A stretch of 64,000 nt of DNA from Methanotrichaceae archaeon (GCA_963748825.1 CAVVKN010000012.1:1-64000); one strand, 5' to 3'. Counted from the stretch's first letter, positions 8,238 through 31,960 are shown. Notes: generated from the sequence alone by a model not told the origin. A program made the numbers and translations.

Positions 8238-8522
8238 GAAAAAGGCTCTTGGGAATAGGGTGCTGCTCATTCATTTTATTATAGTAGATGATAAAGGAAA
8301 CCAAGATATAACACTTAATTTTGCGGATTGTGCATTTCGAATTATTGTAGTTAGACCAAGATCCCCTCGGCCAACGGAAGATCCTCGGAATCGGAAAAGA
8401 TGGATACGGGATCTATGATAGGAAACTGAGGGAGCACTCCACGGCCAGATCGCTCCCGTCAGTCTTTTCGCGACCTTTATCGGCTCATTGCCAGAGGACG
8501 ATACAAAAGCCCATAGCTGTAC

Positions 8523-8765
8523 TCAACTCAGTTCCTCATTAACTCGATTAATGGCTTCCAGAAGATTTGCGCCTTTTTGTGTGGTTTCATACAATACGTT
8601 TTTTCCTGAGTTGACTTCTATTAGTTTGCTTCCGATCAATGTCTCCAAGTAGGGCTTTACCGTCTTGAAGTTGAGGTTTACCTGATACACTATTCGGGTC
8701 TTGCTGGCACTTTTCGCGCACGTATCTAGAATTTGGGCTAAGATCTCTTCACGGCTTCTCTTCAT
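8523..8765 (-). CDS. Small winged-helix transcription regulator (ArnR1-like/HTH_45 type)
   Basis: MKRSREEILAQILD..SKTRIVYQVNLNF..YL..L...LI...YETTQKG is typical of this archaeal family. Confidence 0.8.
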   Translation of the reverse strand: MKRSREEILAQILDTCAKSASKTRIVYQVNLNFKTVKPYLETLIGSKLIEVNSGKNVLYETTQKGANLLEAINRVNEELS

Positions 8766-8844
8766 GCTCCACCTCTTACTGAGCTACGGATTTCCAATCC
8801 GGAATAGTACTATTGATGCATCGCACGCTGTTTATTTAAGGACA

Positions 8845-8882
8845 TATGGCACAGAACATGGATTATAGCACAAAATGTGAAC
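8845..8882 (-). promoter_or_regulatory. 38-bp conserved motif copy 1, 5 bp upstream of a TTAAATA TATA box for the wHTH gene
   Basis: + strand tatggcacagaacatggattatagcacaaaatgtgaac; aligns without gaps to 4 other copies. Confidence 0.7.
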
Positions 8883-9243
8883 ATATATACTCTATCATTA
8901 TTTTTAATTTTGAAAGCGATTTTTATATTATTATTTATGATAACCATATTGATTGATTATTTAAGCTTAATAAAATAATTATTAATAATAGCTTTGGATA
9001 CAAATGAAATTAGCGGAACACAGCGCAAAATTGGCTAAAAAAAACGGATGGTCTTTCTAGAACATTCGGATAGAGAGTTAGGGTTATGACGGGTTATGAC
9101 GCGGGACTAATAAGAACCAATCACCATGACCTTATTTCCTCTCGTGATACACTGTTTTATATCGAATAGAGTAAATTCTAAAATTGGCATTGAGATTTCG
9201 GAAGAACCCTTCTATCTCCAATTTAGAGGAGTGTGGATATGCC

Positions 9244-11262
9244 TCAGATAGTTAGATGCTTTCTTAGCATCTCGTCCAGCTCCTCCATCTTAACCGGCTT
9301 ACTGATATAATCATCCATGCCAGCCTCAAGGCACTTCTCTCTATCTCCCTTGAGCGCATATGCGGTTATGGCGATTATCAACATTTTGTTGTGCCAGCGC
9401 TGGCGAATTATGCGGGTGGCCTCCAGGCCATCCATCTCGGGCATCCTTACATCCATGAGCACAACATCGTAGCTTCCCAATTCAAGAGCCTGCAGAGCCT
9501 CCTTTCCACTGGATACCGCATGTGCTCGATAACCCAATCTCTTAAGCATTGAGAGTATGACCTTTTGATTCGACACATTGTCTTCAGCTATAAGCACACT
9601 TAGATCCTCATGGCCGCTTCTTTCCGCGATTAGCTCATCATCGCTGTCGGCTATGGATTGCTTGGCAAGCGCGGCTTTTAGGGCATTGAAGAGATCTGTT
9701 TGCCTGACGGGTTTGGCCAAAGTGCCTGTAAAAAGCTTTGGTCTGATTCGTTGGCCGGCGAATATCAGAGCTACTATTGGCAATGCCTTATTGATCTTGA
9801 GTATCTCTTCCTCTAAAGAGAGGCCGTTATCTATTGTGCTAATATCCAGGAGAGCAATGTCCATGGGATCAATACTTCTTATTAATCCAAGAGCTTCTTC
9901 AAACCCTGTGCTGGTTATCGGAATCATGCCCCATTCAGCGGTTTGCATTTCTAGGTTACTACGAATGGTTCTATTTCCTTCTGCGATGAGGATTCGCTTT
10001 CCATCAAGCGGCAGCTGGATCCCGCTTAGAAGCGAAATATTGGGAACAGGTTTAGTTTTAATGGTGAAATGGAATGATGACCCCTCCCCCAACTTGCTCT
10101 CTGCCCAAATCCTTCCGCTCATTAGCTCCACCAACTCTCTGCTAGTGGATAAACTCGTGTCAGCAACCTTGTTTTTTCTCTTCTTTAGCTCTTCGGGCGT
10201 TTCACATGAGTTGAAAAGCCGATCTAATTTATCCGCAGGGATACCTATGCCGGTATCTTTGATCTCAAAGTGAATCTCGTATAAGGGATCAAGATGTACA
10301 GAAGATACTGACACATCAACCTCTCCCTTATCGGTGAACTCGACTGAGTTGCTTAGCAAATTGATGAGGATTTGAAGAAGCTTCTTCGGGTCACCGATTA
10401 TTACATCCGGTGAAATTCCATCTATCTTGTATGCCAGATCCAGCCCCTTCGCCGTTGCCTTTTTAGCAACTGACTGCAGAGCATCCTCAATGCAATTGCG
10501 CAGATTAAATGTCCTAATTTCAAGCTCCGTCTTCTCTCGCTCTATCTTTGAGAAATCGAGGAAATCATTTACAACGGCCATCAGAGCATCTGAAGATATT
10601 CTGATGGTCTCTACGAAATCTCTCTGCTCTGCAGTCATATTCTCTTCAAGTAGCAGGCTTGTCATGCCCACTATGGCATTCATGGGCATACGAATGTCAA
10701 AGCTCATGTCTGTCATGAATTTTTTGTATGTCTTTAGCAGTTCAATTACACTTTTTTCATCATTTATGCGATATCTCTTTTTCCTTCCAACTTTCTCATG
10801 GGATAATATTTTGCGATCTTCTAAGATGTTGATGTATTTTGAGGCCGTCGAATGGCTCATTGACAATCTTTGTGCTATCTGAGAAAATGTGGATCCAGGT
10901 GACTCGACCAATATGAGGATTATATCTCGAAAACGCTTCTGCTGCAGTAATTGGGTTAATGCCCTCTCCTCTGGCTTGAGTTTGCCTGAAAGAAAATATA
11001 TTCTTAAGTTATATTGCTTTTGGCTAACAATTAATTCATTTTTCTCTAACTGATCGAGGTGATATCGCAAAGTACTAAGACTTATTTTAAGTTCCCTTGC
11101 GAGTTTCCTCAGGTGAGAGCCGGGATTATTCGAGATATAAGCTAAAATCTTCTCCCTATTATCATGGACAATGTTCTCTTGCATGTCGTCTCTGTCGTTT
11201 CCATCCAATGAATATCTATTTATTTGTTTTAATTTATTTCTGATGAAGTCACGTAGCTGCAA
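9244..11262 (-). CDS. Double winged-helix DNA-binding domains fused to a degenerate histidine kinase (His replaced by Phe) and two receiver domains
   Basis: N-terminal NPGSHLRKLARELKISLSTLRYHL and SPGSTFSQIAQRLSMSHSTASKY; H-box reads DMSFDIRMPMNA; G2 box replaced; C-terminal REC VLMDVRMPEMDG..KP. Confidence 0.85.
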   Translation of the reverse strand: MQLRDFIRNKLKQINRYSLDGNDRDDMQENIVHDNREKILAYISNNPGSHLRKLARELKISLSTLRYHLDQLEKNELIVSQKQYNLRIYFLSGKLKPEERALTQLLQQKRFRDIILILVESPGSTFSQIAQRLSMSHSTASKYINILEDRKILSHEKVGRKKRYRINDEKSVIELLKTYKKFMTDMSFDIRMPMNAIVGMTSLLLEENMTAEQRDFVETIRISSDALMAVVNDFLDFSKIEREKTELEIRTFNLRNCIEDALQSVAKKATAKGLDLAYKIDGISPDVIIGDPKKLLQILINLLSNSVEFTDKGEVDVSVSSVHLDPLYEIHFEIKDTGIGIPADKLDRLFNSCETPEELKKRKNKVADTSLSTSRELVELMSGRIWAESKLGEGSSFHFTIKTKPVPNISLLSGIQLPLDGKRILIAEGNRTIRSNLEMQTAEWGMIPITSTGFEEALGLIRSIDPMDIALLDISTIDNGLSLEEEILKINKALPIVALIFAGQRIRPKLFTGTLAKPVRQTDLFNALKAALAKQSIADSDDELIAERSGHEDLSVLIAEDNVSNQKVILSMLKRLGYRAHAVSSGKEALQALELGSYDVVLMDVRMPEMDGLEATRIIRQRWHNKMLIIAITAYALKGDREKCLEAGMDDYISKPVKMEELDEMLRKHLTI

Positions 11263-11557
11263 CCCAAGCTGTGAACTTCTCTCTTGGACAATATCGCATC
11301 AAATTCCACCGGATTCCCATAGTCTCCCTAGCGAGGAGGTGGCTGCTAATCTGTTATAGATATTTTGTGGTCAATTTCCATCAGTCCCAAAATAGGAGAG
11401 GACGAAATGGCAAGTAGGCTGGCCGCTAGTATTAATGGACGGCTATGTGGCCATAGTGAGTAGTGCGCTCCGGTAAGAGGCGTTCCGATTCTTTTTTTCA
11501 ACAGCGTCTAAATTTGCCGCCTCCTCTGTATAAGCTGACCTTATGCCTGAATGCATT

Positions 11558-11734
11558 CTAGGAAACCACCTGCACAAACCGCTCCTGTATACGATACCGA
11601 TGAAACTGCTCAGACTCCGCTATCTTTCCCAGGAAATCCAAACGCTGATCAATTTTATCAACTTCATAGTTCATCTTCGAGATCCTATCCGAAAGCAACT
11701 GACGTCTTTTGATAAGTGCCTCCCATTCTTCCAT
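11558..11734 (-). CDS. Small coiled-coil hypothetical protein
   Basis: ATG at 11734 with GGAGGTGA RBS; degenerate paralog near 31320-31520. Confidence 0.55.
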   Translation of the reverse strand: MEEWEALIKRRQLLSDRISKMNYEVDKIDQRLDFLGKIAESEQFHRYRIQERFVQVVS

Positions 11735-11809
11735 GTATTTCACCTCCGATTTACATCTTATTCGCATCTGATTTGCATCCAGATAATTGATACATTTGCA
11801 TAAGCTCTT

Positions 11810-11847
11810 TATGGCACATATTGAGAATTATAGTACAAAGTGTAAAC
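11810..11847 (-). promoter_or_regulatory. 38-bp conserved motif copy 2, upstream of a TTATGCAA TATA-like box
   Basis: + strand tatggcacatattgagaattatagtacaaagtgtaaac. Confidence 0.65.
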
Positions 11848-12040
11848 TATCAAATTTACCCGGTCGTGAATTTTTCCAGTCAATGTCTTAGGGATGATGA
11901 AAGCAGTATGTTGCTTTTAGGGCAGGTATGATGTCATAAGGGATCATTCATCCTGGGATGGGATCTAACTTGACTTAATAATTTCTAAGTAAATCAATCA
12001 ATATATGATTTTTTAGTTATAATTGCATGGTTGATATTAA

Positions 12041-12301
12041 TTATGTGAGCTTGGCAGTAACTCTATCCTTAAGATGTACCAATTGTAATATACTCATCCT
12101 CGCCAATTTGATAAGATGCTGTAGGAACGGGATGGAAAAAACCATGCTTCTCCGGGGCATAGGAAAGTTGCAGTTGGGGCATTGTGGAATCCTCAGGATA
12201 ATATTTATCAAATAGAAGATTCCTAAACCTCTAATAAAGCCTTTCCACGTTAAATACATATTGGGCTTTACATCCTTCCGGCAATATCTACAGAGTACCA
12301 T
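12041..12301 (-). CDS. LITAF-like zinc-ribbon membrane-associated protein (paralog of 18688-19038)
   Basis: CRYC - hydrophobic helix - CPNC. Confidence 0.65.
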   Translation of the reverse strand: MVLCRYCRKDVKPNMYLTWKGFIRGLGIFYLINIILRIPQCPNCNFPMPRRSMVFSIPFLQHLIKLARMSILQLVHLKDRVTAKLT

Positions 12302-12589
12302 ATATCCACCATTTATATTACTAACACAGGTTTTGACAAATTAGCGCCTGGAGACCCCGAGAATTTGGTTCAGGCTCTGTTCGGAAGGTACTTCGAAATG
12401 GGCTTACCACTATTTATTAGGAACTGATAGTATTTAAGATATCATAAGACAATCTCCGCCAACTTTTGTCCGTAAGCTTGATCCTCCTCCCCTTCAGCAG
12501 CCCATCTCCTGTTCCCATCTAGAATTATCCCGATATGTTTGGTATTCGTTTCATGGACTCCGAACTAATTTTGAAGGTGCTAAATTTTG

Positions 12590-12884
12590 GTTTCCATTGG
12601 TGCTGTGATAGAAGCATCCATCGTTCCTGCAGACAGGTCCGTGAATGCCTGATCATTGGTAGCAAATACCACGAAGGTATTATTGCTTATATGCAATCCT
12701 TCATTATTCCGAGTGCCCACCACATCAGCTTTCTGGATGGCTGCAGAGTACGTATTCAGGTTTCCCAGATCCTGGCCGCCTCCAGGACGCCGTAATCCGC
12801 GCCAGTAGCTCCCATGAGAAGGGTGATCGATATAAGCGATGCCAATAGCAATATCGGCAAAGTCCGTTTGATTTTTACGATCAT
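12590..12884 (-). pseudogene. Truncated, frameshifted fasciclin (FAS1)-domain secreted protein
   Basis: ATG 12884 gives signal peptide MIVKIKRTLPILLLASLISITLLMG; a second frame gives GNLNTYSAAIQKADVVGT..EG..TFVVFATNDQAFTDLSAGTMDA (FAS1 H1-like). Confidence 0.65.
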
Positions 12885-13087
12885 ATAACGTCAAATCCTA
12901 AAAATTTTCCAACTTTTGGTTTTCGCTATTTTTATTCTTATTTGCCTTTAGCTGTGATTGTATTCTATGTAGTTTCCATATTTTTTTGATTAAGACTGGA
13001 GAGAAGAGGAGAGAGAGACAGAATCTCTCCAGCCAAGGAGGTTAACCTGACTACAATGTTAGAATGCGCTAAATCTATTTAAATTGT

Positions 13088-13125
13088 TATGGCGCAAAAT
13101 AAGAATAGTAGTACAAATCGCGAAC
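13088..13125 (-). promoter_or_regulatory. 38-bp conserved motif copy 3, upstream of TTTAAATA
   Basis: + strand tatggcgcaaaataagaatagtagtacaaatcgcgaac. Confidence 0.65.
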
Positions 13126-13176: not shown

Positions 13177-15735
<2,559 letters not shown>

Positions 15736-15747: not shown

Positions 15748-16140
15748 TCATCCTTTCGTTTTCTGGGGTTTCACCTCTTGCAGGGGATCGACGATTTCTG
15801 TCGTACCGATGTGCAAGTCCATTCCTACCAGAACTCGCCTCGTGTCCGACATGCTCCCAATCAGTTTTCTCAGAGGCGGTGGAAGCTCTTTGATGAGCGT
15901 AGGCGCTGCTACAATTTGTCCATCTTTGGCGAGAATGGGCTGCTGGTAAACATCAACCACTTCGAGTTGATATCTGCCTGCCAGGTATGTCTCGCATATG
16001 CGCTTGATGTTTTCGATTGCCTGAAGAGACTTTGGGTTCATACCTGCGACAAAAAGGCGTAGGACATACTTTTCCTGACTTAGCCGCTTGAGTGCTTCCT
16101 CAAACTCCTGGGTCGTGTCTTTCTGCTCGTCCATAGGCAA
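15748..16140 (-). CDS. kaiB: KaiB-family protein (second copy)
   Basis: YVLRLFVAG..S..AI..I..ICE..L.GRY.LEVVD...P.LA...IVAAPTLIKELPPPLRKLIG. Confidence 0.92.
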   Translation of the reverse strand: MPMDEQKDTTQEFEEALKRLSQEKYVLRLFVAGMNPKSLQAIENIKRICETYLAGRYQLEVVDVYQQPILAKDGQIVAAPTLIKELPPPLRKLIGSMSDTRRVLVGMDLHIGTTEIVDPLQEVKPQKTKG

Positions 16141-16169
16141 CCCCTCGTTTTCGAATCAACTGACTTTTG

Positions 16170-16490
16170 CTATGCCGGTCTTAGATCAAGACCTACTAAA
16201 ACCTTCTCTGTATTGGATAGGTCGCCGATAATCTTCTTTAAGGGGGGCGGCAGCTGCCTTACCAGAGTGGGGATGGCCAGGATCTGATCTCCCTTAGCAA
16301 GCTGAGGTTTCTCCAGCAGGTCTATTATCTCTATTTTATATCTGCCTGCCAGGTGCTCCTCGCAGATCTTCTTGAGATTGGCAAAGGCAGCAAGGCTCTT
16401 CCTGGTCTGACCTGCCACATAGAGCCTCAGTATGTAGACATTTTCTCCTGGCTGCATGCCGGACTGAACTGTTTCAGCTCCTTCTTCCAT
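16170..16490 (-). CDS. kaiB: KaiB-family protein
   Basis: [28 protein letters not shown]...[26 protein letters not shown]. Confidence 0.94.
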
Positions 16491-16531
16491 TTGATCTCCT
16501 CAGCTTCCTTTAGAGTGGCTATCAGCCTTTC

Positions 16532-18223
16532 TCAAACGTGCCATGTCCGTGTGACTTTCTTATCTATGGCTTCACGCTTGAGTTCCTCCTCCCCAACCAA
16601 TTTTTTCAGCTCTTTTTCTTCCGTCTCGAACTCTGAACGAAGTGCAGCAATCTGTTCATCCAGTGATCTCAGCGTTTTCTCCAGATCGCGCTTCTTGCGT
16701 TCAGTCTCTTGCTTTTGAGCCATGGCTTCGGCTTTCTCCCGAGCCTCCACAACCGCTCTTGAGGAGCCCATGAGAAGTCCTCCTGTCTGGCCCAGATAAA
16801 CATCTGTCAGCTTTACGCCCTCGCCTGTGATCAGGTACTCGCGTATCTGGTTGGAGTGCGCCATGCCACGAGACTTCACCACTGACAAGCCACGATTGCG
16901 TTCATCGCCCTCCTCAAACATCCGCAGCCTGATCCAGGTATCCATCAGAGAAGAGATTCCCTGGCCAGACTGCCCATCCTCCTCGCTATCAATCAGGCTG
17001 GTAGAGAGCGCGGTTATACCCCTCCGTTTGAGGTAATCAATCAGCCTTGTCAGCATGAACTTCACATCGGTTTCTGTTCCGACGTTCGTCAGGTTCGAGA
17101 TGGGATCGATGATCACCACTTTAGGCTGGAACTTGTCGATGATCTTTCGCATCTCCAACAGATGCATCTCAATACCTTTAGCCATCGGCCTTGAGGCGTG
17201 GATCTGAAGGAGACCTGCGTTAATGCATGAATTGAAGTTGATGCCGATAGAACCCATGTTGCGGCCGATCTGGCTGGGTGACTCCTCGAAGGCGAAGTAA
17301 AGGCAGCGCTCATGTCGGCGGCATGCAGCATCTATAAAATGAGCCGCCAAGCTGGTCTTGCCAGTGCCCGCCGTCCCTGAGATCAGAATGCTGCTCCCGC
17401 AAAAGTAACCTCTTCCCCCCAGCATATTGTCAAGCCGCTCGATTCCGGAAGATATCCTCTCTGTGGAAGCGGTATGCTCCAGCCCGAGGGATGTTATGGG
17501 CAGAACAGAGATGCCGTCTTCCTCTATGAGAAAGGGATACTCGTTCGTGCCGTGCTTCGAGCCGCGATACTTGACGATGCGAAGCCTTCTGGTGGCGATC
17601 TGCTGCTCCATGCGGTTGTCGAGGAGTATTACGCAATCGGCAACGTACTCCTCCAGGCCGAAGCGTGTCAGTGTGTTATCGCTACGCTCACCTGTTACGA
17701 TGGCCGTTACTCCCTTGCTCTTCAGCCATTTGAAGAGCCTTCGAAGCTCTGAACGCAAAATGGCATAATTCTTAAACCCTGCAAAAAGCACCTCAATAGT
17801 GTCCAGGACCACGCGCTTGGCTCCGATGGAGTCAATGGCAGATCCCAAGCGGATGAAGAGACCTTCTAGATCATATTCCCCCGTCTCCTCAATCTCTGAG
17901 CTGTCGATGTAGATGTAATCGATGAGGATCTTTTTTCTAGCCGTTAGGTCTGCCAGGTCGATTCCCAGGGAGGCGAAGTTCTTGGTCAGCTCCTCGGAGC
18001 TCTCCTCAAAGGCTACGAAGACTCCAGGTTCATCATATTTGAGGGCCCCCTGCGCGAGGAACTGCATGGAAATCAGAGTCTTGCCTGAGCCTGCGCCACC
18101 TGCTATTAGAGTAGGACGTCCTTTAGGAAGCCCACCATCCGTGATCTCGTCTAACCCGTTGATCCCCGTAGGGGATTTCTCTAAACCAGCAGAATTGATG
18201 TCAGCAGTGTTCGTGTCCGTCAT
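16532..18223 (-). CDS. kaiC: Double-domain KaiC with C-terminal coiled coil
   Basis: Two Walker A motifs (GGAGSGKT, GTAGTGKT), two FEES, KYRGS/KSRG, phospho-site region ISSLMD. Confidence 0.95.
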   Translation of the reverse strand: MTDTNTADINSAGLEKSPTGINGLDEITDGGLPKGRPTLIAGGAGSGKTLISMQFLAQGALKYDEPGVFVAFEESSEELTKNFASLGIDLADLTARKKILIDYIYIDSSEIEETGEYDLEGLFIRLGSAIDSIGAKRVVLDTIEVLFAGFKNYAILRSELRRLFKWLKSKGVTAIVTGERSDNTLTRFGLEEYVADCVILLDNRMEQQIATRRLRIVKYRGSKHGTNEYPFLIEEDGISVLPITSLGLEHTASTERISSGIERLDNMLGGRGYFCGSSILISGTAGTGKTSLAAHFIDAACRRHERCLYFAFEESPSQIGRNMGSIGINFNSCINAGLLQIHASRPMAKGIEMHLLEMRKIIDKFQPKVVIIDPISNLTNVGTETDVKFMLTRLIDYLKRRGITALSTSLIDSEEDGQSGQGISSLMDTWIRLRMFEEGDERNRGLSVVKSRGMAHSNQIREYLITGEGVKLTDVYLGQTGGLLMGSSRAVVEAREKAEAMAQKQETERKKRDLEKTLRSLDEQIAALRSEFETEEKELKKLVGEEELKREAIDKKVTRTWHV

Positions 18224-18498: not shown

Positions 18499-18536
18499 GT
18501 TCGTGCTTTGTGCTATAGTTCCTGATTTGTGTCATA
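18499..18536 (+). promoter_or_regulatory. 38-bp conserved motif copy 4 (opposite orientation), 5 bp upstream of TTTAATA
   Basis: gttcgtgctttgtgctatagttcctgatttgtgtcata; reverse complement aligns to the other copies. Confidence 0.7.
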
Positions 18537-18687: not shown

Positions 18688-19038
18688 ATGGTACTTTGTG
18701 GATATTGTCGTATCAATGTAAAGCCCAAGATGTATTTAACGTGGAAAGGCTTTATTAGAGGTTTAGGATTCTTCTATTTGATATATATTATCACAAAGGT
18801 TCCACAATGCCCCAACTGCAATTTTCCTATGCCCCGGAGAAGCATGGTTTTTGCCTTCCATCCCCCACCGCAGCTTATCAAATTGGCGAGGATATGTGTA
18901 TTTCAACTGATCCATTTTAAGGATCGGGTAATATCCGCTTCTCGGAGATACAATATAAATCGCAGATTCTATCCATCCCAGAATTTCGGAAGTATGAACC
19001 CAAACAAAACCACATATTTCAATAATATGTTTAAGTAG
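18688..19038 (+). CDS. LITAF-like zinc-ribbon protein
   Basis: MVLCGYC...hydrophobic...CPNC; start chosen by alignment to the paralog. Confidence 0.65.
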   Translation: MVLCGYCRINVKPKMYLTWKGFIRGLGFFYLIYIITKVPQCPNCNFPMPRRSMVFAFHPPPQLIKLARICVFQLIHFKDRVISASRRYNINRRFYPSQNFGSMNPNKTTYFNNMFK

Positions 19039-19226: not shown

Positions 19227-19511
19227 ATGGCAAGTGAAAATGTAGAGAAGGCAAAGGCCGATGTAAAGAAAGGTGTGGCTGATTTGGAGAAGGCGGGGAG
19301 TTATTTAAAGGCTGATATAGAATCTGGTGTGGAAAAGGCCAAGGCAAGTTTGGGGCATAGTGAACTTGGGAAGAAAGTAGAATATGCCAAGGCAGACATA
19401 AAGGCTGACGTGGAGAAGTCAAAGGCGGAAATAAAACATGCGTCCGCTGATGCAAAAGCAAATGCAGATGAAGAAAAGGCTAGGATAGATCGAGCAAGAA
19501 AAACCACATGA
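19227..19511 (+). CDS. Small hydrophilic LEA-like/apolipoprotein-like repeat protein
   Basis: AAGGAGG RBS; repeated EKAKADVK/IK amphipathic units. Confidence 0.65.
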   Translation: MASENVEKAKADVKKGVADLEKAGSYLKADIESGVEKAKASLGHSELGKKVEYAKADIKADVEKSKAEIKHASADAKANADEEKARIDRARKTT

Positions 19512-19572
19512 GATAAACATCAGATTAAGATATGTGGAATAGCTCGGTTTGAACAGCAAAAAGGAGGATAAA

Positions 19573-19755
19573 ATGGCAGACTTGCTCTATTTGGCAGTAG
19601 TGTTCTTTGTAATAGCCCTGATACTTGGAATAATGGGATCACGAGGTGCCGGCATATCGATGGATATTGCCAAATGGCTGATAATTGTATTCATCATTCT
19701 GGCGGTACTGTCGCTCATATTCGGTGGTGGCATATTGTTAACGTTGGCAATTTAG
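19573..19755 (+). CDS. DUF1328/UPF0391 small membrane protein
   Basis: [37 protein letters not shown]; GGAGG RBS. Confidence 0.8.
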
Positions 19756-20346: not shown

Positions 20347-20676
20347 ATGATAATTTTGAAAAAAGAAGAATTTATGCGGCAGATCGAGGGTTGCAAGCTT
20401 CCAGCGATCTTTGATCAAGGTCTCTTGGATAATGCTTCTGAGATGTTCAGCAAATGGGGTATGACCACACATTTGGACGAAAAGGAGCACCTTTTTAAGA
20501 GTTCTGGACTGGCACCTAAACCCGAAGATAGCGATGCCCTGAAAAAGGAAAAAGAGGCATTGCGTTGTGTGTGCGAGAAGATGATGGACTCAAATCTGAA
20601 TAGGAATGACGCAGCGGTGATCATCAAGAATTTTAATAACATCAAAGATCCGGAATTTGAGTGGGCAAAAGAATAG
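20347..20676 (+). CDS. Hypothetical protein
   Basis: 109-aa ORF in a co-oriented cluster. Confidence 0.65.
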   Translation: MIILKKEEFMRQIEGCKLPAIFDQGLLDNASEMFSKWGMTTHLDEKEHLFKSSGLAPKPEDSDALKKEKEALRCVCEKMMDSNLNRNDAAVIIKNFNNIKDPEFEWAKE

Positions 20677-20863
20677 ATCCACTCCATTAATTTTTATAAA
20701 ATTATAATCATTATATCACGGAGATATGATGTTTGGAGTCCGTACTTAAACTTATTGAGCTTTATAAGTATATAGCGTATAGAACTTTAATATTTTTATA
20801 CCAAAAGCTTTTTATTTAATGACATCCTACTGTATCTAGAATCACTAATGGAGGATTAAAAAT

Positions 20864-21004
20864 ATGGCAAATGACGTTGAAGCACAGCTAAAGCAGCTAG
20901 ACATAGAGATGAAGAAAGCGAAAACCCAGGCGGAAAAAGATGAGATTAAGGAACGTCAGGATGAACTCAAACGACAATTAGCTGGTTCCCCGAAAAAGAA
21001 GTAG
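20864..21004 (+). CDS. Unlisted 46-aa charged coiled-coil small protein
   Basis: GGAGG RBS, MANDVEAQLKQLDIEMKKAKTQAEKDEIKERQDELKRQLAGSPKKK; TATA-like sequence upstream. Confidence 0.6.
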   Translation: MANDVEAQLKQLDIEMKKAKTQAEKDEIKERQDELKRQLAGSPKKK

Positions 21005-21223
21005 AAGTCTATGGTTGCGGAAAATGCTAAAGCTTCATATAGAAAATATGGAGTTGAGGCATGAAATTCTACAATACTTATACCTATATAATATAGGCAT
21101 ATCCGAAAAGGGATTCAAAAGATTTTTGACATCTTTTTCGCTATCTTTTTGTCCCTCCTCTTAAATTTTAGTTCATCAATAGGAATCTTAGAAACCGGTT
21201 TAAGCAATAGTAGGTGTGAAAAA

Positions 21224-22207
21224 ATGAAATATAGCAAAATTTTGATATTTATGACCGTGCTCGTCTGCCTTGCGTTTCAGGCATTCGCACAGTCTGACCC
21301 ACTAGGCGGAAGTTCCGCTAGTGGCACAATGGGATCGAGCGGAGATTATCTTAGCCCCAACATGGGCCAAATGCGCGGTACAAGTGATCCGGGACTGGCT
21401 GGCATGTTGCATTGGCTCGATACGCCAGTACCAAACTTCCCCTGGTATACTACGGGGGGTTCCTTCTACAGCCAAGAGTATAGCGACGTCACGTTCTCGC
21501 CTTACACAGAGTACTATACAACTACTGGTACGCCTGTAGTAGGTGGGATAGTAAGCAATCCTACTAAGTTCGATATAACGCAGAAAACGCCTTCCACTGT
21601 GTACTACGGTGCCGGTGTAGGGTTGCCGTACACCCAGTATGCATCCACAGTGCCATCCAAGACCAATGACCTATGGGTCCAGGGAGCAACAAACTGGACA
21701 CAGTATGTGGTAAGTCCAGTCGGAACATGGCTACAGCTAATCGCTTACGCACCCGTCGAAGGACCAGCAGGCTTCTATGAGATGATCCAGACAGACACAA
21801 CCAGTTCGAAATACAAGACTTATCAGTTCAACCAGGGTTATAACACCATGAACTTCAATGCCGACCAGGTTGGAAGACACATGCTCTACTTTGTGGTAAA
21901 CAACCAGCCCAGCAATGTAGTCGTTGTGGATGTATTTGCCCAGGCACCAGCTGGAAACGCAGGGGTAAGCATTTATCCGGCAGCAAAACAGACACCACCA
22001 GTAACCGTTCTTGGCAATTCAAACGGCTTGACTACTACAACCACATCAGATGGACTAACCACCACTACATCCAATGGCCAGACCACCATTACGCCTGGTG
22101 GTCAGACTACGACAACCTCTGATGGAACTTACCAAACAACGACGAGTTCCGATGGAACTACTGTCATATCCAACAACGGCCAGATGACAACGACAAGCTC
22201 CGGTTGA
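21224..22207 (+). CDS. Secreted hypothetical protein with Thr/Gly-rich tail
   Basis: Signal peptide MKYSKILIFMTVLVCLAFQAFA; repeated (N/D)GxTTTT tail. Confidence 0.75.
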   Translation: MKYSKILIFMTVLVCLAFQAFAQSDPLGGSSASGTMGSSGDYLSPNMGQMRGTSDPGLAGMLHWLDTPVPNFPWYTTGGSFYSQEYSDVTFSPYTEYYTTTGTPVVGGIVSNPTKFDITQKTPSTVYYGAGVGLPYTQYASTVPSKTNDLWVQGATNWTQYVVSPVGTWLQLIAYAPVEGPAGFYEMIQTDTTSSKYKTYQFNQGYNTMNFNADQVGRHMLYFVVNNQPSNVVVVDVFAQAPAGNAGVSIYPAAKQTPPVTVLGNSNGLTTTTTSDGLTTTTSNGQTTITPGGQTTTTSDGTYQTTTSSDGTTVISNNGQMTTTSSG

Positions 22208-22651: not shown

Positions 22652-25600
22652 TCATGAGCCATCCTGAGTGAGTCGATATTTCCTCAGCACCTCGGCCAGT
22701 TCCTCTATTCTTACTGGTTTGCTGATATAATCGTCCATGCCGGCATCAAGGCACTTCTCCCGATCGCCTCTTAGAGCATAGGCAGTGATGGCTATTATCT
22801 TCGGCCCGTTATCCGGCCAGAGCTGGCGGATTATGCGGGTAGCCTCCAGGCCATCCATCTCAGGCATCCTCAAATCCATTAGCACCAGACCATAAGGCTG
22901 GCGTTCCAGGGCCTGCAGAGCTTCAATTCCATTAGCGACCACATCCACAGTGCAGCCCAGGCGTTTAATCATCTGACGCACTACCTTCTGGCTGGACACA
23001 TTGTCCTCGGCCAGAAGTATGTGCATCGGTCTGATCTGAGTCTTCTGGTTTACCTCGCCAGCTTGAGCTGACTTTCGAGAGAGTACACATATCAAAACCT
23101 TGTGAAGCTGAGAAGGTTTGATGGGCTTGATCAAGTATGCATCAATGATATCTGAAGCCATTTGATGATCTATGGAGGTTAGCAGAACCAATGGCATGGT
23201 CTTATCGATTTTTCTGATCTCTTTGGCCAATGTTGCGCCATCCATTTTTGGCAAATCTATGTCCAGCATAGCCACGTCAAAGTGGCTTCCTCTTTTGATC
23301 CAGTTAAGAGCGTCCTGGCTGTTCGATGCGATGAGAGGCACCATGCCCCAGGAATAAGCATATTCCCCCAAGATGCGACGGTTGGATTTATTGTCATTGA
23401 CTATCAGAACATTTTTGCCTACAAGCAGAGACTGAGCACCAAGCAATTGCTTCTCGGGCTGTATTGGTGCAATCGCAGCAATAATGGTGAAATGGAAGGT
23501 AGATCCCTTGCCAAACTCGGATTCTACCCAAATTCGTCCTTCCATGAGTTCGACCAGTTTCTTAGCTAGGACCAGGCCCAGACCAGTTCCGCCGTAATCG
23601 CGCGTTATTGATGCATCCACCTGGCTGAATGGCTGGAAAAGACGATCCATCTTTTCATTGGATATGCCGATACCTGTATCGGCAATAGCGAAATGTATCT
23701 CATAATTGCCATCGAGCTGATGGCCAGATACATTGAGTTTTACCTCGCCATTTGCTGTAAACTTCACTGCATTGCCCAGCAGATTAACCAGAATCTGGCG
23801 CAGCCTGTTAGGATCACCGATTATGTTTTCTGGAACGGTTCTGTCTATGATAATGGACAGGTTCAGGTGCTTCTCGGTAGCACAGGCTGATACCAGGTTG
23901 ATAGATTCCTCGATACAGCTATGCAGGTCAAAAGGCTGCTCCTCCAGAACCACTCTTTCCTGCTGCATCTTGGAGAAGTCCAGGATGTCGTTTATAACCA
24001 CCATCAACGCATCCCCGCTGATCCTGATGGTCTCAATAAAGTCCTTCTGTTCATCATTTAGAGATTCATCATCGAGCAGCAGGCTGGTCATGCCTATAAC
24101 TGCATTCATGGGAGTGCGGATCTCATGGCTCATATTGGCCATGAAATTGGATTTGGCCTGCGTTGCCTCCTCCGCGACCTCCTTGGCTTGCATAAGCTGT
24201 TGATTGATTTTTACAAGATCAGCGGTTCTTTCCTGGACCCTCTGCTCCAGCTCGTCCCTGGACCTGCGTAATGTCTCTTCAGCCAGCTTGAGACGGGTCA
24301 CGTCCGCACCGGCGATGACAGCGCCACGCACATGGCCCTCGGCATCGAATAGGGGCATGGCGCTCTCTATCAGGTGGACAGTTCTTCCGTCAGGGAAGAG
24401 CAGTTCCAGTTTCTCACCCATCACAGGCTTGCCGGTAGCAGTGGCGACCTGGGCGGGCATTTCTTCCGTCTTCAGCTCTACGCCTTTTTTGATAACCTTG
24501 TACATGACAGCGACGTCTTCAGGCGGGGCACTGCGAGAGACATTGGCGCCCCGTGGAGCTTTCAAGATCTGATCGGCATAGGCATTGCCGGTAATTCGGC
24601 TGCACTGCGGATCGTGTGCGATCCAGACGGCGACGGGCACTGCATCCAACACGACCTGCAGTTCTGCGATTCTGTCAGCCAGCTCGAGGGCAAGACGCTG
24701 GCGCTGCTCTTCAGCCTGTTTGCGCTCGGTGATGTCCATGAACAGGACCGCAAACTGGCTGGGCGCCGTGCGATAGGCAAACACCTGGTAGTGCCTACCC
24801 AGAGCAGGCGAGAAGTTTTCGAATTGGGCTGACTTGCCGGTGAGAGCGACAGCACCATACTCCCTGACCCATCGCGGATCATCGTCAGGCAAGACATCGT
24901 TGTGGTTTTTGCCGATCACATCCTCCCGCGTTAGGCCAGTAAGCCTCTCGAAAGCCGCGTTGACGTCGAGGAAACGGAAATCGCAGGGATCGCCTTTTTC
25001 ATCGCATACAATCTCATGCAGAGCGAAGCCTTCCGTCATCCCATTGAATAGATCGCGGTATTTCTTTTCACTCTGGCGCAGATTATCTTCTGCTTGCTTT
25101 CGCATCGTGATATCAAAAGTGGCAACTACGACTCGAAAATCTGGAAAAGGAAGAGAGACTGCGTTTACATCGGTCCAGATAACCGTATTATCTTCTTTGA
25201 TTATACCTATCATGGCATTCTGAACGATTCCTTCTCCTTCAGTTAGTGCTTTTGAGCTGGGGAATTCCTCTGGAGATATCTCCTTCCCATCAGGCTGAAT
25301 GTACCTTCTGCCAGAGTATTTTCCTTCCAGTAGCTCCTCCCTGGAAAGACCCAGCACTTTCTCTAAGGCGGGGTTAACAATAATGACTTTTCTTTCGTTA
25401 TCGGTGACAGAGATCCCTATCGGCAACAGGTTGAATAGAGCCCTCAATTTCCCTTCGCTTTCTCGAAGAGCCTTTTCCATTTTCTTTCGGTCTGTAATGT
25501 CTTGGCCCTGGGCAATGGTAGCAATGATCGTAGTTCCATTCGCGTCATAGATGTTGGCCGAATTCCATAAGACGGTTCGTATCGATCCGTCTGCATTAAG

Positions 25601-27487
25601 AATAGGGATCTCGACAACTTCCCAGCGTTCTCCAGACAGAGTTCGACGGATATGCTCCAAAGATTCTAGGCTGTTACTCTCCGGGAAGAGTATGTTCAGA
25701 GGCTCCCCGAGGGCTTCGGCTGCTCTAAGTCCAGTCAACCTCTCAAAAGCATGGTTGAATCTGGTGATCCTGAATGAGGGGTCCCAGACTATGATCGGAG
25801 CATTGGCATAGTCGATCAGGCTCTTCAGATAATCATGTGTCTCACGTATTGCATCTTCGGCCCGTTTGCGATCAGTGATGTTCTTTCCATAAACATTGAC
25901 ATAACCCAAATCAGCGATAGGAACGAACACGAGCGAATAAGCGATGCCACCGGGCATAATTTCAATTTCACTGCAGTTTCCAGATCGGAGGGTTTCCTGG
26001 ATAAGATTTCCATAACCCCCTGGTAGCTTCTGTCCTATCTGGCAGCCCCATTGCTCAAGCAGCAGAATGCTGCCTCTATTTGCGTATATGATAGTACCGT
26101 CTGCTGCTATTCTAAGGACAGGATTCGGGTTTTCGTCCGCGAACTTAGCCAGGCTCTCTATCTCTCTCATGGCCTTCCTGCGCTCTGAGATGTCGCGGAA
26201 GACAAGCACGACGCCGGTAGTTTTGCCATCTCGGTCATTTATTGGCGCACCGCTGTCGTCAATCGGAATTTCTGTTCCGTCCCTGCGCACCAATATCGTG
26301 TGGTTGGCAAGACCGACAATTACCCCTTTGTCGAGCACCTTGGTGACAGGGTCTTCAACTTTCCGGCGGGTGTGTTCGTTTATGATGTTGAATACATCCT
26401 TCGCCGGTTTCATCGAAGCCTCATGGAGGGTCCAGCCGGTCAATTCTTCTGCTATTTTGTTCATGAAGGTGATCTTGCCTTCAATATCGGTGGAGATGAT
26501 CGCATCGCCGATGCTCGCCAGGGTGGTTGCGTAGCGCTGCTCGCTCTTCTGCAGCGCCTTTTTAGCCTGCTCGCGCTCAGTAATATCACGGATGATGCTC
26601 AGAAGTACACGCTCACCCTCGATCACCGTTCCCAGCGAGCTGACCTCTACTGGGAAGGTGCTGCCATCTTTGCGTATGTGTTTGGTTTCGAAAAGGAGAC
26701 CCTCTGAATCAGCCAGTTGCATCTGGTTAGATACTTTTTCTAAGGTTTCGGGATCCCTCAGATCGCAAATATTCTTGGAGAGCAGCTCATCACGTGAATA
26801 TCCATAGGCGTTTATTGCAGCCTCGTTGGCCTCGGTTATACAGCCATCTCTGCCCATGAGCAGAATGATGTCCCGCGCATATTTCGAGATAAGCTGATAA
26901 CGTCCCAATATTCTCTCAGCCTTCTTGCGCTCGGTTATGTCGATAGCGGCGATCCGGCACTGTCTGCCGTTCGTCGAGCCATCCTCAGCGACTATACCCT
27001 CGATGCGAGCATAAACGGTAGGCTTTCCATCCTTTAGGAGGTTGAGTTCGCACGTTTGCTTGATGGATGTCTCAAACGCTTTTTTGCAGAAATCATCAAA
27101 AAAAGGACAGTCTTTGGGTGCCACAAAACGCTGAAAATGCCTGCCATTCATCAGGTTTCGCCTCTCCATACCCAGGAGTTTGGCTCCCGCCAGGTTGACC
27201 TCCTGGATCAGTCCCTGCGCATCGAAAGCAAACAATCCGATGGGGGCAAAGTCATAGAGGTCTGAATACTTCATAAGAGCATTTTCCGTCTCCAGTTTGG
27301 CGAGCTTCAGCTCTTCGTTTTGCATCTCCAGCTCAATCTGGTGGACCTGTAGCTCATGAACCAGAGCTCGGGCATCTTTGCCTTCCCCCTCAAAGCCGGC
27401 GGGATCGCTTCCGCTGCCCATCAAACGCTCTTCTGCCTGGTGACGCAGGTCACCGTTCTGATTTGATTTGGCTTTCTCATTCTTCAT
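22652..27487 (-). CDS. Multi-PAS hybrid histidine kinase with two receiver domains
   Basis: [20 protein letters not shown]-terminus (typical downstream of CheB/CheR), many PAS/PAC DITERK motifs, intact H/N/G boxes; start may extend to 27559. Confidence 0.92.
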
Positions 27488-27507
27488 GGTCTTCTTCTCT
27501 TGTAATT

Positions 27508-30500
27508 TCAGGACTGATCTTTGCGATCCGTGATGTCTTCTATTGCGAGTAGAATCCATTGCGCTTGGCGGTCCGCCTGCACTATTTGCCGGGCATTGAG
27601 GAGCATCCTCTTGCGACCGATCCTTGGGAATTCATGCTCCATCAGGAAATCCTCAACCTGGGTGTTCTTGGGAAGCATTTTATCCAGAAGCTGCCGGAGA
27701 GCGGGAATGTCCCACTGTCTATTTCCCAGGTCGTAAAGGAGCTGCCCTTCGATCTCCTGGGGCGCCACCTGAAACGTCCTGTAGAACGCGGGATTGGCCG
27801 AAACAACTCTCAGGTCGCCGTTAAGCACCACCAGCGGTTCCCTAACCGTGCGGATGATGCCCTCTGCATACCTGGTGCGCTCCATCATGAGATCGGTCAT
27901 CTTTTTTAATTCTGTGATGTCTGAGAATGTGATCACAGCGCCATCGATGATGTTATTAGCTGTTCGATAGGGGATGATGCGCATCAGGTACCATGTCCCA
28001 TCCCTGGTCTGCACCTGAGTTTCCTTGAACACCAGCGTCTGCAGAACATCCCTCACATCTTGGATCAGATCTTTATACTCAAGGTTGGTTACGATATCTG
28101 TGATCGGACGCCCAGTGTCGCTCTGGATGAGGTTAGCGATCTTCGTCGCATAAGGCGTGAACCGTTTGATTTTCAGGTTGTTGTCCAGAAATATGGTCGG
28201 GATTTGCATGCTGTCGAGGAGGTTTTTCATATCGTTGTTGGTATTGAACAGTTCATCATTTTTGGACAGCAGCTCAGCATTGAGGGTTATCAGCTCCTCG
28301 TTGAGGGATTGCAGCTCCTCTTTTGAGGTTATCATCTCCTCATTGATGCTCTGCATCTCTTCGTTGGTCGATTGCAGCTCCTCGTTCGCGGACTTTAGCT
28401 CTTCCTGGGAAGTCTCCATCTCTTCAACGACACTCTGAAGGTGTTCCTTCGTGGATTGCAGCTCCATCTCGAGCTTGCCGTTGATGGCCTCCAGCCTGGA
28501 AGAAGATCTTAATTTTTTCTTGGAGGATTGAGCCACCTCTGCGAGCATTTCCACGTCCTCAAACAGGACCATCATGAGCCCGCGCATCACCTCTTGCTCC
28601 TCGAAAGGACTGACCGTGAGGTTGACCACCTGTTCGGACCCGTTCGTCTTGATCCGCAGGCCCTTAATGGTTGTCTTCGTCTTCTCGGTCATCACTTTAC
28701 GGATGAGCATTCCCAGCTCAGATCTCAGGCCCTCACGCGCCATGGCATAGATGTTCAAATTCGCTTTTCCGACAGGCGGTTCCAGGTATTTCCCCGTACG
28801 CCTGGTAAGGTAAAGGATGTCTCCCTTGTCATTGATGAGCACCACAGGAGGTGCGATGGTCTGGAGGATGAACGTCTGGGCTATCTCGATGACGCTGGCA
28901 TCGGAAATTCTTGGTGTGCTCACGATGCCTTGCCTGCGGACTTCAAAAGGCGGCCGCGACGTGGGAAATTCGATCAGCCCCTTGCGGGCGATGAGTGTCT
29001 CCCTGCGCTTGAAGACCTTCCATTTGTTGTCCAGCGGAGAGAAGAGATCGGTGTAGACTCCTATGGACTCGGAAGAGCCGATGAAGAGAAATCCTTCCGG
29101 ATTCAGGGAGTAGTGGAAGAGTGGCAAGAGCTTCTTTTGTGTCCCGGAGTTCAGATAAATGAGAAGGTTTCGGCAGCTGAGCAAGTCCAGATTGGTGAAC
29201 GGCGGGTCGATGAGAACGTTCTGCTGCGCAAAGATGATTAAATCCCTGATCTCTTTCTTTATACGATAATGATTGTCCTCTTCTGTAAAAAATCGTTGCA
29301 AGCGCTCCTGTGACACGTCTTCGACGATTGTTGCAGGGTAGGTACCCTGGCGAGCAAAGTCGATGGCATCTTTGGCTATATCCGTTGCATAGATCTGGAT
29401 CTTGAAATTTCCTCTAGGCAACAGATCATCCAGGCACTCTCTGAGAGCGATGGCGATGGAATACGCCTCCTCGCCGGTGGAGCAGCCGACCACCCAGACG
29501 CGGATGGTGCTCTCCCCCTTTCTTTGTCTTGAGAAGCTCTAAAATGACCTTCTCTTTCAGGACAACAAAAGCATCCGGTTCCCTGAAAAAGCTGGTCACG
29601 CCGATCAGAAGCTCTTTGAAAAGCAGATCGATCTCAGGGGAATTCTCCTGAAGGTAGCGGACGTACCCAGTTATATTATTAATTTGATGAATGTTCATCC
29701 GCCTTTCAATTCTGCGGAGAATTGTGCTCTTCTTGTAGAGGCTGAAGTCGTTTCCGGTTTGAGCCCGGATAAGGACGAATATCTTTTGCAATGCGCCAGT
29801 GGTTTTCTTCTCGGCAGGAGGCAGCTCCCCGGTTATCCTGTAGACGTGATTCACATATCCGAGCAGCTTTGCAGGCAGTTCGTTTGCCGGTGCCACATAA
29901 TCAATGAGACCGGTATTGATGGCGCTCTGGGGCATTCCGTCGTACTTGGCTGAACTTACGTCCTGCGCCATCGCCATACCCAGCTTCTCTTTGATGGCTT
30001 TCAACCCAAGGGTGCCGTCCGTTCCCATTCCGGAGAAAATGATGCATATGCTATTCGCTCCCTGGTCATCGGCCAGGTGCTTGAAAAAGAAATCGATGGG
30101 CGCCCGAAATCCCCTCGGCATGGAGGGCTCCAGTAGCTGGAGGGTTTTGTGCAGGATGGACATGTCCTTGTTTGGCGGGATCACGTAGACATGGTTCGGT
30201 TGAACTTTCATCCCGTCCTTCGCCTGAAGAACCTTCATGGTCGTGACGCGTGAGAGCAGCTCTGGCAAGATGCCTTTGTGAGTTGGGTCGAGATGGGACA
30301 CGATCACAAAAGCCAGTCCGGTATCATTTGGCATGTTTTGGAGGAATTGCTCAAAAGCCTCCAGAGAGCCGGCCGACCCGCCCATTCCCACGATGTAGAA
30401 GGACTTCTTTCGGTCATTCTCGTGGGGTGCGCTCTCTTTCGGCAGAGAAGCAGGTGATGTTTTGATGATGCTATCATTTTTTGGATCTTTATCTTCTGGT

Positions 30501-30580
30501 TTCATGCGAAGTTCTCCCTTTCTCGAAAGCAATAGCTCGCTTCTGTGCTGTATTTCCTCTGCCAGCTTGATCTGCCCCAT
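27508..30580 (-). CDS. CheB methylesterase/CheR methyltransferase fusion with coiled coil and PAS, split by a +1 frameshift near 29514-29518
   Basis: GGSAG, HLDP, SGMGTDG (CheB); [31 protein letters not shown] (CheR); removing one G from a G5 run restores [18 protein letters not shown]. Confidence 0.9.
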
Positions 30581-31037
30581 ACTTCTTGGACTTTCTGCTC
30601 GCCATCTATCCGCTTTATCAATTATCCTCGGTCTCCACTGTGGATGAGCTACAGATTGTGACCCAAACCTCCGCAGTTAAAAATTCGCTACTTTGCTCCC
30701 AAGCCTAACCAAGTCTAGCGATCATTCGAACGGATGCATTCTAATGCGCAATCTTCGTTTTCCCCTGATAGGTGCAATAAATAAGTATTCTTTTTCTGTA
30801 AGAGATCATCGATCCTCTGGTACATCGACCTTTTGAAGCTCGCCCCCCAGTTCGTTCGAGTGGAATCGCCAGCATCTCCGGCCACAGTCCAGTTCGCAGT
30901 ACGCATCAGTTCCTCAGGGCGCAAGTCTCGCTTTCAATGCCTTTTTTTGGAGGCTTGTAGGATTAGCCACATAGATATCATCGCCCACCATATCTGAAAA
31001 ATAGGTAGCCACCAACAGTGGATGCGTTCCGCTGATT

Positions 31038-31337
31038 TTATCGATTGCGTTGTGGCCATAGCGAATAATGACCACCGGGAAGAGGCGTTAGGATTTCTTT
31101 TTCAACGGCTTCTGCATTCGCCGCCTCTTTTGCATAAGCTGACTTTATGCCTGCTTCTATGGCCCTTACCGTCGAAATATTCCAGTTGTAAAGACGTGCA
31201 TCGTAGTAGAGGTTCAGTAAAGCTCCATCTTCTGTGCCAGCCTGCCCGACAGTGTCCAAGAAATCTTCAACATATTCCTTGTTCACTCCACGATGTGATG
31301 TAAAATTCTCTATTTCATTAATTGACAATGAATGCAT
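31038..31337 (-). CDS. Hypothetical protein
   Basis: AGGAGGT RBS; internally deleted paralog at about 11430-11556. Confidence 0.6.
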   Translation of the reverse strand: MHSLSINEIENFTSHRGVNKEYVEDFLDTVGQAGTEDGALLNLYYDARLYNWNISTVRAIEAGIKSAYAKEAANAEAVEKEILTPLPGGHYSLWPQRNR

Positions 31338-31554
31338 TCTGAGAAACCTCCTGCGAAAATCTATAATTTAAATGATACTGATCAAACTGCTCATATATTG
31401 TCGTCATATCCAGGAAATCCAAACTCTGATGAATTTTTTTAACTTCATATTTCATCTTCTGAGATATTGTCCATGATCACATCTTTGAGTAATTGCCTCC
31501 GATTCTTCTTTGTGGTTCACTACACAGGCAATTGGCACATTTGTATAAGCTCTT

Positions 31555-31592
31555 TATGGCACATATTGAGAATTATAGTACAAAATGTGAAC
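31555..31592 (-). promoter_or_regulatory. 38-bp conserved motif copy 5, upstream of TTATACAA
   Basis: + strand tatggcacatattgagaattatagtacaaaatgtgaac. Confidence 0.7.
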
Positions 31593-31619
31593 TATTTTGG
31601 CGCAATCGCATTGTTAGTG

Positions 31620-31960
31620 ATGGTCATAGATGATGAATATAAAATAGAATTCATAAAATTTGTATGTTTTGAAATTGAGCAAAGATATTCTATTGTGCTG
31701 ATACAATTTGGCACTGATGGCGACCATATGCATGTTTTTGTTGGGCAGCGCCAAAATATTCGCCTTCAAAAATTATGCAAATTATAAAAAATAAGGTTGC
31801 GAGAGATTTGCTTAGGCGTTTGCCCTGAAATTAAGAAACTACTTTGGTGAGGCATTTCTGGAGCGATGGCAGGTATATTGGTACTGTTAGTGATTAGTGA
31901 TAATGTGTTACATCAGATGTGATTAGAAAGTATATTGATGAACAAGGCACCAAAGAGAAC
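31620..31960 (+). mobile_element. tnpA: IS200/IS605-family TnpA (Y1 HUH) transposase remnant
   Basis: DGDHMHVFV (HUH), then broken frames APKYSPSKIMQIIK, FWSDGRYIGTV, IRKYIDEQG (catalytic Tyr); stops and frameshifts present. Confidence 0.8.

Follow-up and report, generated by a model that had tools for sequence, protein, structure and literature searches.

The route by which bacterial-type two-component systems gain access to the archaeal transcription machinery is still largely open. The question is posed by a gene island in a 64,000-nucleotide stretch of DNA from a Methanotrichaceae archaeon (GCA_963748825.1, CAVVKN010000012.1:1-64000), referred to here in its whole length as “the window”; its 2.9-Mb genome is designated G000 and the relatives compared with it G0xx or G1xx. 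The island, at 8.5–31.9 kb, is bounded by a large surface-protein gene and recJ, and its GC content dips to 0.39–0.45. It contains an HTH_45 gene, a protein of winged helix-turn-helix (wHTH)-wHTH-HisKA-HATPase-REC-REC architecture (the “core protein”), two intact multi-PAS hybrid kinases, kaiC-kaiB-kaiB, small genes, a cheB-cheR-PAS fusion, and a scrap of an IS200 element. Its proteins are named only generically in the source databases, and the named relatives of the locus are Methanotrichaceae. The core protein, a DNA-binding pseudokinase, is a candidate for the missing output: in some acetate-eating methanogens, comparisons of sequence suggest, an archaeal DNA-binding protein carried on a disabled bacterial-type kinase probably switches on stress genes via a 19-base repeat.

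The core protein (9244–11184, minus strand) has 646 residues counted from a conserved ATG, with the frame opening at 11262. It joins a wHTH-wHTH head to a DHp helix bundle without the phospho-accepting His, a degenerate ATP-binding domain, an atypical receiver, and a canonical receiver. The head gives two HTH_24 stretches, HVO_0163-like, in Pfam, and both wHTH domains are present in a structure model of the protein (pLDDT 88). In the window, Phe162 takes the place of the phospho-His, and no G2 box is left; of 99 fusion-length homologues, 95 have the His replaced (by Tyr in 68, by Phe in 27) and 4 keep it, and the G2 glycines are retained in 32–56 of 97. The last receiver has the canonical acidic pair, Asp, Thr, and Lys, of which the latter three are kept in all 91 homologues that hold this domain; its Asp is residue 578. 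The first receiver keeps its Asp in 86 of 88 homologues and has lost the acidic pair and Thr/Ser. A first-pass annotation of this DNA had correctly described a dead kinase core, two wHTH domains, and an Asp in each receiver; of the two receivers, the second alone is canonical.

Several lines of evidence bear on how this architecture arose and is maintained. In seven pairwise comparisons, for which several dS values are saturated, dN/dS is 0.00–0.13 for the His-less bundle, 0.05–0.11 for the last receiver, and 0.06–0.10 for the wHTH pair, with 0.08–0.30 for the ATP domain and 0.15–0.57 for the first receiver. Because the ratios of the bundle, last receiver, and wHTH pair are low, the core gene is taken to be a maintained pseudokinase and not a decaying one, with the His-less bundle, by this measure, under strong purifying selection. 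A stand-alone form of the double-wHTH regulator has 172 residues, and the join in the fusion substitutes for its short C-terminal helix; in a monomer model of the core protein (pTM 0.48), one helix spans residues 143–179 and runs from the DNA-binding head into the bundle. As read from sequence, the protein is an archaeal double-wHTH regulator fused to a hybrid-kinase chassis that lacks the phospho-His and keeps the dimerizing helix bundle and a canonical last receiver. The route of invention would be one in which an archaeal regulator captured a kinase body, lost the His, and kept the helix bundle. A quick tree of 49 kinase cores places 14 fusions in a single supported clade and two shorter fusions with the intact kinases that neighbor them, which suggests that fusion happened a second time or that the core was swapped; judged from this placement, the His was lost in the main fusion clade and again in the second, separately placed pair. 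Searches with the wHTH pair by fold gave nothing beyond ArsR/SmtB matches to single domains and unrelated wHTH tandems, and by sequence against known structures only the structural-genomics wHTH 5duk. Two further variants of the chassis were noted: a fusion that retains the His (followed by Gly, not Glu) and lacks the first receiver (L109:8453-10036), which offers a natural control, and a 364-residue homologue with wHTH-pair, HisKA, and GAF matches and no receiver (P0063).

The window also contains five copies of a sequence motif, each adjoining a TATA-like box. Scans used a weight matrix for the window genome and, for relatives, patterns built from the window copies and then refined. In leave-one-out scoring, with two duplicated copies left out jointly, the five score 36–39 bits, as compared with 16.8 for the best non-site in the genome. 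Further copies in G000 occur only on a redundant contig: G000:C8:1-12842 is 99% identical to window positions 1–12843, unrelated genes included, and is probably a strain variant assembled twice, so that this copy of the locus was not treated as independent. With sites from relatives, the motif resolves into tandem 19-bp direct repeats, RTTCNCRNTTTGTRCYATA, in 2 to 7 units; the number of copies and the adjoining TATA-like box had been recognized at first pass, and what had been taken for a single element is really two direct repeats. The 78 distinct terminal sites, which include orthologous sites and so are not independent, comprise 65 with two units, 12 with three to seven, and one below the unit threshold. 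In 69 of the 78, the TATA-like box starts 4–6 bases past the last unit. The flanks of the sites are not conserved, the sites precede unrelated genes on many contigs, and none extends into the TATA box or the region of the start. The longest array, of seven units before one promoter, lies at L115:5757-5892 (G062:C2), and three- and four-unit arrays occur in G061, G062, G063, and G089.

Which protein reads this operator can be addressed by asking what it travels with. The pattern derived from the five window copies matched 11 of 36 genus genomes, precisely those in which the wHTH pair has a strong homologue. Across 105 Methanotrichaceae genomes, the wHTH-pair protein is present in 27 (19 fused, 7 stand-alone only, and 1 fragment) and the refined operator pattern in 25, namely in 23 of the 27 with the protein versus 2 of the 78 without it; among the 68 genomes outside pattern building the counts are 11 of 15 versus 2 of 53. 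Of the four genomes that the pattern misses, G071 has a 29-bit site behind its wHTH gene, G070 and G072 each have one 20-bp-spaced site beside the gene (found with a pattern made after these sites had been seen), and G125 has only a gene fragment. A pattern allowing three mismatches recovered no sites in these four genomes. One of the two genomes with the motif and no protein found, G112, is 59% complete, and its contig holds the right half of the same island. On a recJ tree of 50 of the 59 genus genomes, those giving a recJ match, protein and motif change seven times each and agree in six of six independent pairs (p 0.031). Fisher tests overstate the association, the genomes being related to one another, and carry no weight here. 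The association is not mere linkage: of the 17 fusion genomes that carry sites, 15 have one that lies at a distance of over 30 kb from the gene or on a different contig, and in three (G032, G111, and G114) the contig of the wHTH gene has none. Outside the family, tandem sites of 32–47 bits (shuffles, below 5) lie near stand-alone homologues at four of six loci, from Halobacteriota, Thermoplasmata, Thermoplasmatota, and an uncultured archaeon. From this pattern of occurrence, the wHTH-pair protein is very probably the binder of the operator, which upholds the earlier proposal that the wHTH-pseudokinase is the motif reader.

The genes behind the sites suggest what is controlled. In the window, operator 1 (8845–8882, minus strand, 2 × 19 bp) precedes the gene for an HTH_45/Sso10a-like protein identified by Pfam (8523–8765, minus), which was absent from the gene list of the first-pass annotation. 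Operator 2 (11810–11847, minus), upstream of the core gene, precedes a 69-residue coiled-coil-like ORF of no known family (11558–11767, minus). Operator 3 (13088–13125, minus) lies just behind the Kai-linked kinase and ahead of a decayed fasciclin-like gene (12580–12894, minus), a position occupied by Hsp20 in G006 and G116. Operator 4 (18499–18536, plus) is directed away from kaiC and towards a gene for a CxxC-hydrophobic-CxxC protein (18688–19038, plus), an inverted duplicate of which at 12041–12301 carries no site. Operator 5 (31555–31592, minus) precedes a decayed ORF of the 69-residue type and a 99-residue ORF of no known family (31038–31337, minus), of which a remnant copy lies at 11432–11549. 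Recurrent first genes behind sites are HTH_45, the 69- and 99-residue ORFs, and a basic family of 85–133 residues that was not found in G000; a protein atlas gave no usable match for the basic family or the 99-residue ORF. Among 40 downstream ORFs, 12 have Pfam matches: Hsp20 (2), lamin-tail domain (3), M50 protease (2, with CBS counted with M50), Usp, rubrerythrin-like, DUF347, and fasciclin. The Hsp20, Usp, rubrerythrin-like, and M50 protease targets each occur in single lineages. These Pfam matches suggest a stress-type regulon that differs by lineage.

The first-pass annotation had listed the LEA-like, DUF1328, and PGF-CTERM genes alongside the motif. None of these, nor the genes of 109, 46, and 327 residues beside them (together at 19227–22207, plus strand), has a site within 500 bases upstream, and most have paralogues elsewhere in G000 that are likewise without a site; on this evidence, the small-gene cluster is outside the regulon in G000. 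In G012, G112, and G008, the 46-residue gene is preceded by a site. A Thr-rich, probably secreted protein of this cluster (21224–22207, plus) has no Pfam family and about 20 matching stretches in the genome. Neither the fasciclin nor the LITAF gene of the window has a Pfam match. The first name survives in that the ORF is a decayed remnant whose G012 counterpart matches Fasciclin, and the second was given by eye to the CxxC-CxxC gene, as were the labels LEA-like and, for the basic target family, AbrB-like.

Together, these features suggest a mechanism in which each double-wHTH head would read one 19-bp unit and a dimer, formed through the His-less bundle, would set two heads on two units just upstream of the TFB recognition element (BRE). 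The bound protein may then aid loading of TFB and TBP, activation from just upstream of BRE having a precedent in the accessible part of one report (PMC5937170). The last receiver would be phosphorylated in trans, either directly by related hybrid kinases or via a genus-wide Hpt, and the signal would run through the His-less bundle, which begins with a helix that carries straight on from the last one of the head. Phosphorylation of other proteins in trans by a methanogen hybrid kinase likewise has a precedent, from what is accessible of its description (10.1101/2021.03.04.434021). Candidate donors are HK1, the last gene of the kai operon (PAS-PAS-HisKA-HATPase-REC-REC; 13177–15735, minus strand), and the multi-PAS kinase HK2 (22652–27559, minus). 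Both share the PAS-HisKA-HATPase-REC-REC plan with H, N, G1, and G2 boxes intact, in agreement with the earlier description of two intact hybrid kinases, one behind kaiC-kaiB-kaiB and one behind cheB-cheR. Of 16 kinases in G000, HK2 and HK1 are the closest paralogues of the fusion, with identities of 64% and 62% in the helix bundle (others, 45–59%) and 70% and 71% in the last receiver (others, 50–69%). As had been noted, no Hpt or stand-alone receiver is among the 24 island ORFs scanned; a stand-alone Hpt, at G000:C13:47347-47745, and some ten stand-alone receivers are encoded elsewhere in G000, and Hpt is found in 78 of the 105 family genomes. As Hpt is present outside the island, the module need not be self-contained. 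The output would be a small, lineage-variable set of stress-type genes, encoding the Sso10a-like and other small proteins. With binding, activation, and control by the protein's own receiver taken jointly, it is somewhat more likely than not that the core protein activates a small stress regulon as a single chain controlled by phosphorylation; considered singly, activation from a site upstream of BRE is likely by analogy, and control by the last receiver is, from its conservation, about equally so.

A number of observations weigh against this reading or one of its parts. In G077 (97% complete, in 350 contigs), three sites are present and the wHTH pair was not found, making it the true exception so far. 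The tree test rests on six pairs, one gene, and incomplete genomes. Two of the six loci outside the family have no site in the flanking DNA examined, and Methanolobus-type loci have a weak site variant in just 3 of 12. With respect to the targets, three of the five window sites precede decayed or family-less ORFs. With respect to the promoter, A at -3 and -2 is no rarer than in 171 background boxes, the background being crude. Finally, the stand-alone wHTH form works without any receiver, the last receiver is encoded in a separate frame in G023 and G009, and the conserved receiver Asp is dispensable in the hybrid pseudokinase PsmA, according to the accessible part of its description (PMC12963549).

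An alternative is that the same protein binds the same operator as a repressor, the bound dimer blocking TFB at the BRE zone until phosphorylation releases it. The 4–6 bases left before the TATA-like box are few, the weakness of BRE expected of promoters served by TFB-recruiting activators did not show against the crude background used, and single wHTH domains share their fold with ArsR/SmtB repressors. Likeness to the ArsR fold, however, does not set the direction of control. The sites never overlap the TATA box or start region, and they stand at a fixed place upstream, as does the site of the activator TFB-RF1 in the portion of its description available (PMC5937170). Repression is an unlikely explanation.

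A second possibility accepts the operator and its binder and denies the protein's own receiver the role of switch. The His-less bundle might instead sense the phospho-receiver of another protein, as in DivL, or the chassis might be a dimerizing scaffold, as in PsmA. Replacement of His by Tyr is the DivL substitution, as given in the accessible text of that work (PMC4211667); selection holds the bundle as tightly as it does the DNA-binding head, the stand-alone receivers of the genome could provide partners, and the separate frames in G023 and G009 fit as well. Against it stands the last receiver, in which every catalytic residue is invariant across the 91 homologues that hold it, even as the first receiver is decaying, and a receiver-independent switch is for this reason regarded as improbable, with control by the last receiver preferred.

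The first-pass annotation had gone further, proposing a self-contained timer-to-transcription module in which KaiBC times HK1, CheBR tunes HK2, and both kinases phosphorylate, or form heterodimers with, the pseudokinase. The kaiC-kaiB-kaiB genes (15748–18223, minus strand) do supply hourglass-type parts, namely KaiB and a double-domain KaiC with phosphosites and a C-terminal extension. The closest matches of this KaiC are the 568-residue chains of PDB 8dba/8fwi (residues 12–548, E 3e-179), with the Ser-Ser site and the C-terminal extension kept; the chains are presumably the Rhodobacter sphaeroides protein. The likeness to a KaiA-less type, in what is available of its description (10.1101/2022.11.28.518275), favors a timer, as do the adjacency of the parts in G000 and G012, the closeness of HK2 and HK1 to the fusion, and the presence of the motif system in all nine kaiB genomes of the genus, for which the tree test is not significant (p 0.22). 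Yet kaiB, found in 18 of the 105 genomes (13 of the 27 that have the wHTH pair and 5 of the 78 that do not), was missed in 8 of the 19 fusion genomes, of which four (G027, G028, G062, and G023) are 95–99% complete, and gives strong matches in G065, G068, and G069, all without the wHTH protein and motif. Only in G000 and G012 do the kai genes lie on the contig of the fusion. In the nine further genomes that have both kaiB and motif, the kai contigs are free of sites, and no kai operon in the genomes examined carries the operator. At three other kai loci compared, kaiC-kaiB-kaiB followed by a kinase forms a unit of its own, and in G012 kaiC is split into three frames.

The other proposed input is CheBR. 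The cheB-cheR-PAS fusion (27508–30580, minus strand) is present as described, but one extra base near 29508 breaks it in this assembly, the frame being intact in the three relatives aligned (G012, G112, and G008); this may be an assembly error or a pseudogene. Within the stretches compared, cheB-cheR with its kinase stands beside the fusion in 4 of 19 genomes. A second cheR-PAS gene followed by a hybrid kinase, without a site, lies at G000:C19:19167-23024, marking the module as common. The co-occurrence that the first-pass annotation had put forward as a check on its proposal holds across the 105 genomes for protein and motif and is loose for kai, and with Hpt outside the island a self-contained Kai-timer module is not supported. 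Such a module now seems decidedly unlikely, and Kai as an input to the pseudokinase about equally so; Kai-HK1 and CheBR-HK2 are better seen as exchangeable neighbors that may or may not feed it. A broader view, in which the pseudokinase is, for some Methanotrichaceae, where a hybrid-kinase/Hpt network ends in transcription and, where kaiC-kaiB-kaiB-HK1 is present, a KaiBC energy or time sensor is wired to TFB-dependent promoters as a clock output free of SasA and RpaA, would be a speculative and rather improbable extension.

Reading of the motif by the small HTH_45 (Sso10a-like) protein, suggested by sites ahead of its gene in several genomes, is very improbable. Close homologues occur in 14 of the 25 motif genomes versus 18 of the 80 without it, only 2.7 of seven tree pairs change in the same direction, and of 13 HTH_45 loci in G000 (redundant contig excluded) one has a site. 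Separately, HTH_45 genes lie near stand-alone receiver genes three times in G000 (C5:22346-23395, C6:48731-51073, and C18:24056-25118), and by their arrangement these pairs possibly form a separate receiver-plus-HTH output. That the repeats are no operator but left over from local duplication, the end of a mobile element, or a small RNA is scarcely credible: local duplication did produce two of the five window copies and the IS200 scrap adjoins one, but unrelated genes on many contigs, a fixed distance to the TATA-like box, unconserved flanks, the lack of any Rfam match in 8000–33000, and retention beside distant homologues in other archaea argue otherwise.

Other features of the window were recorded in passing. 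The IS200-like transposase scrap lies at 31600–31900 (plus strand), between operator 5 and recJ; among 30 recJ loci, a site stands beside recJ only in G000 and G012, which are not sisters on the tree. A short remnant like undecaprenyl diphosphate synthase (12445–12564, minus; E 0.01) lies where G012 has a site ahead of the CxxC gene. Beyond the island, 41224–48693 (minus) holds BREX-type defense genes for BrxL and a PglZ-domain protein, then a DNA methylase fragment, an AAA ATPase, and a Fic gene. A sigma-70 promoter scan, which does not suit archaea, was at chance level. The sequencing runs matched represent relatives only (share at most 0.21) and are contigs throughout, so that gene ranking and transcription are not readable from them; in two metatranscriptome runs, pieces span kaiC-kaiB-kaiB-HK1 and just short pieces of the core gene occur, these being contigs and no measure of expression.

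The system is directly testable, since its operator and targets are predicted, the head without chassis serves as a natural control, and candidate donors are named. In archaea, response regulators that bind DNA are rare, and the kinases of Methanothrix are hybrids for which few outputs are known, as stated in the accessible part of one survey (PMC5847659). A literature search, with most subscription papers and preprint supplements outside its reach, found no description of this fusion or operator.

Known systems nevertheless share individual features with it. The Rhodobacter sphaeroides KaiBC hourglass presumably has a similar KaiC; the window differs in having two kaiB genes, not tied to the regulon and known from genes alone. 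In the MA4377 relay of Methanosarcina acetivorans (MA4377-MA4376-MA4375), as far as the available description goes, a two-receiver hybrid kinase phosphorylates the receiver of another protein in trans near a transcription factor, but there the kinase is active and kinase, receiver, and transcription factor are separate proteins, unlike the one-chain core protein. TFB-RF1 (PF1088) of Pyrococcus furiosus, in the accessible portion of its description (PMC5937170), binds just upstream of BRE/TATA, the position of 69 of the 78 sites, and controls a small regulon beside its own gene. Compared by description, not by sequence, its site is a short palindrome, TCTG-N5-CAGA, in place of 19-bp direct repeats, and it has no kinase chassis. 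DivL of Caulobacter, with Tyr for the phospho-His, and PsmA of Streptomyces, a hybrid with a receiver, resemble the core protein in replacing the His and keeping the helix bundle. The outputs of both, in the parts of the descriptions available, are protein contacts with no DNA-binding domain mentioned, and the core family has in part lost the ATP lid as well; DivL has a PAS-HK architecture and retains the G2 box, whereas the core protein is without PAS and its family has often lost G2. Further likenesses are FilR1 of Methanosaeta harundinacea, phosphorylated in trans by a separate kinase according to the accessible text of two reports (PMC3991700, PMC5847659), and LtrR of Methanococcoides burtonii, methanogen proteins in which, as in the core protein, a wHTH or HTH is joined to a receiver. 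FilR1 is wHTH-DUF1724-REC, with DUF1724 absent from the best 25 Pfam families listed for the core protein, and LtrR is HTH-REC; the core protein mounts two wHTH domains on a complete hybrid kinase that lacks the His and has two receivers. On present comparisons, this is a form of archaeal two-component output that apparently has no earlier description, and its operator is strongly supported.

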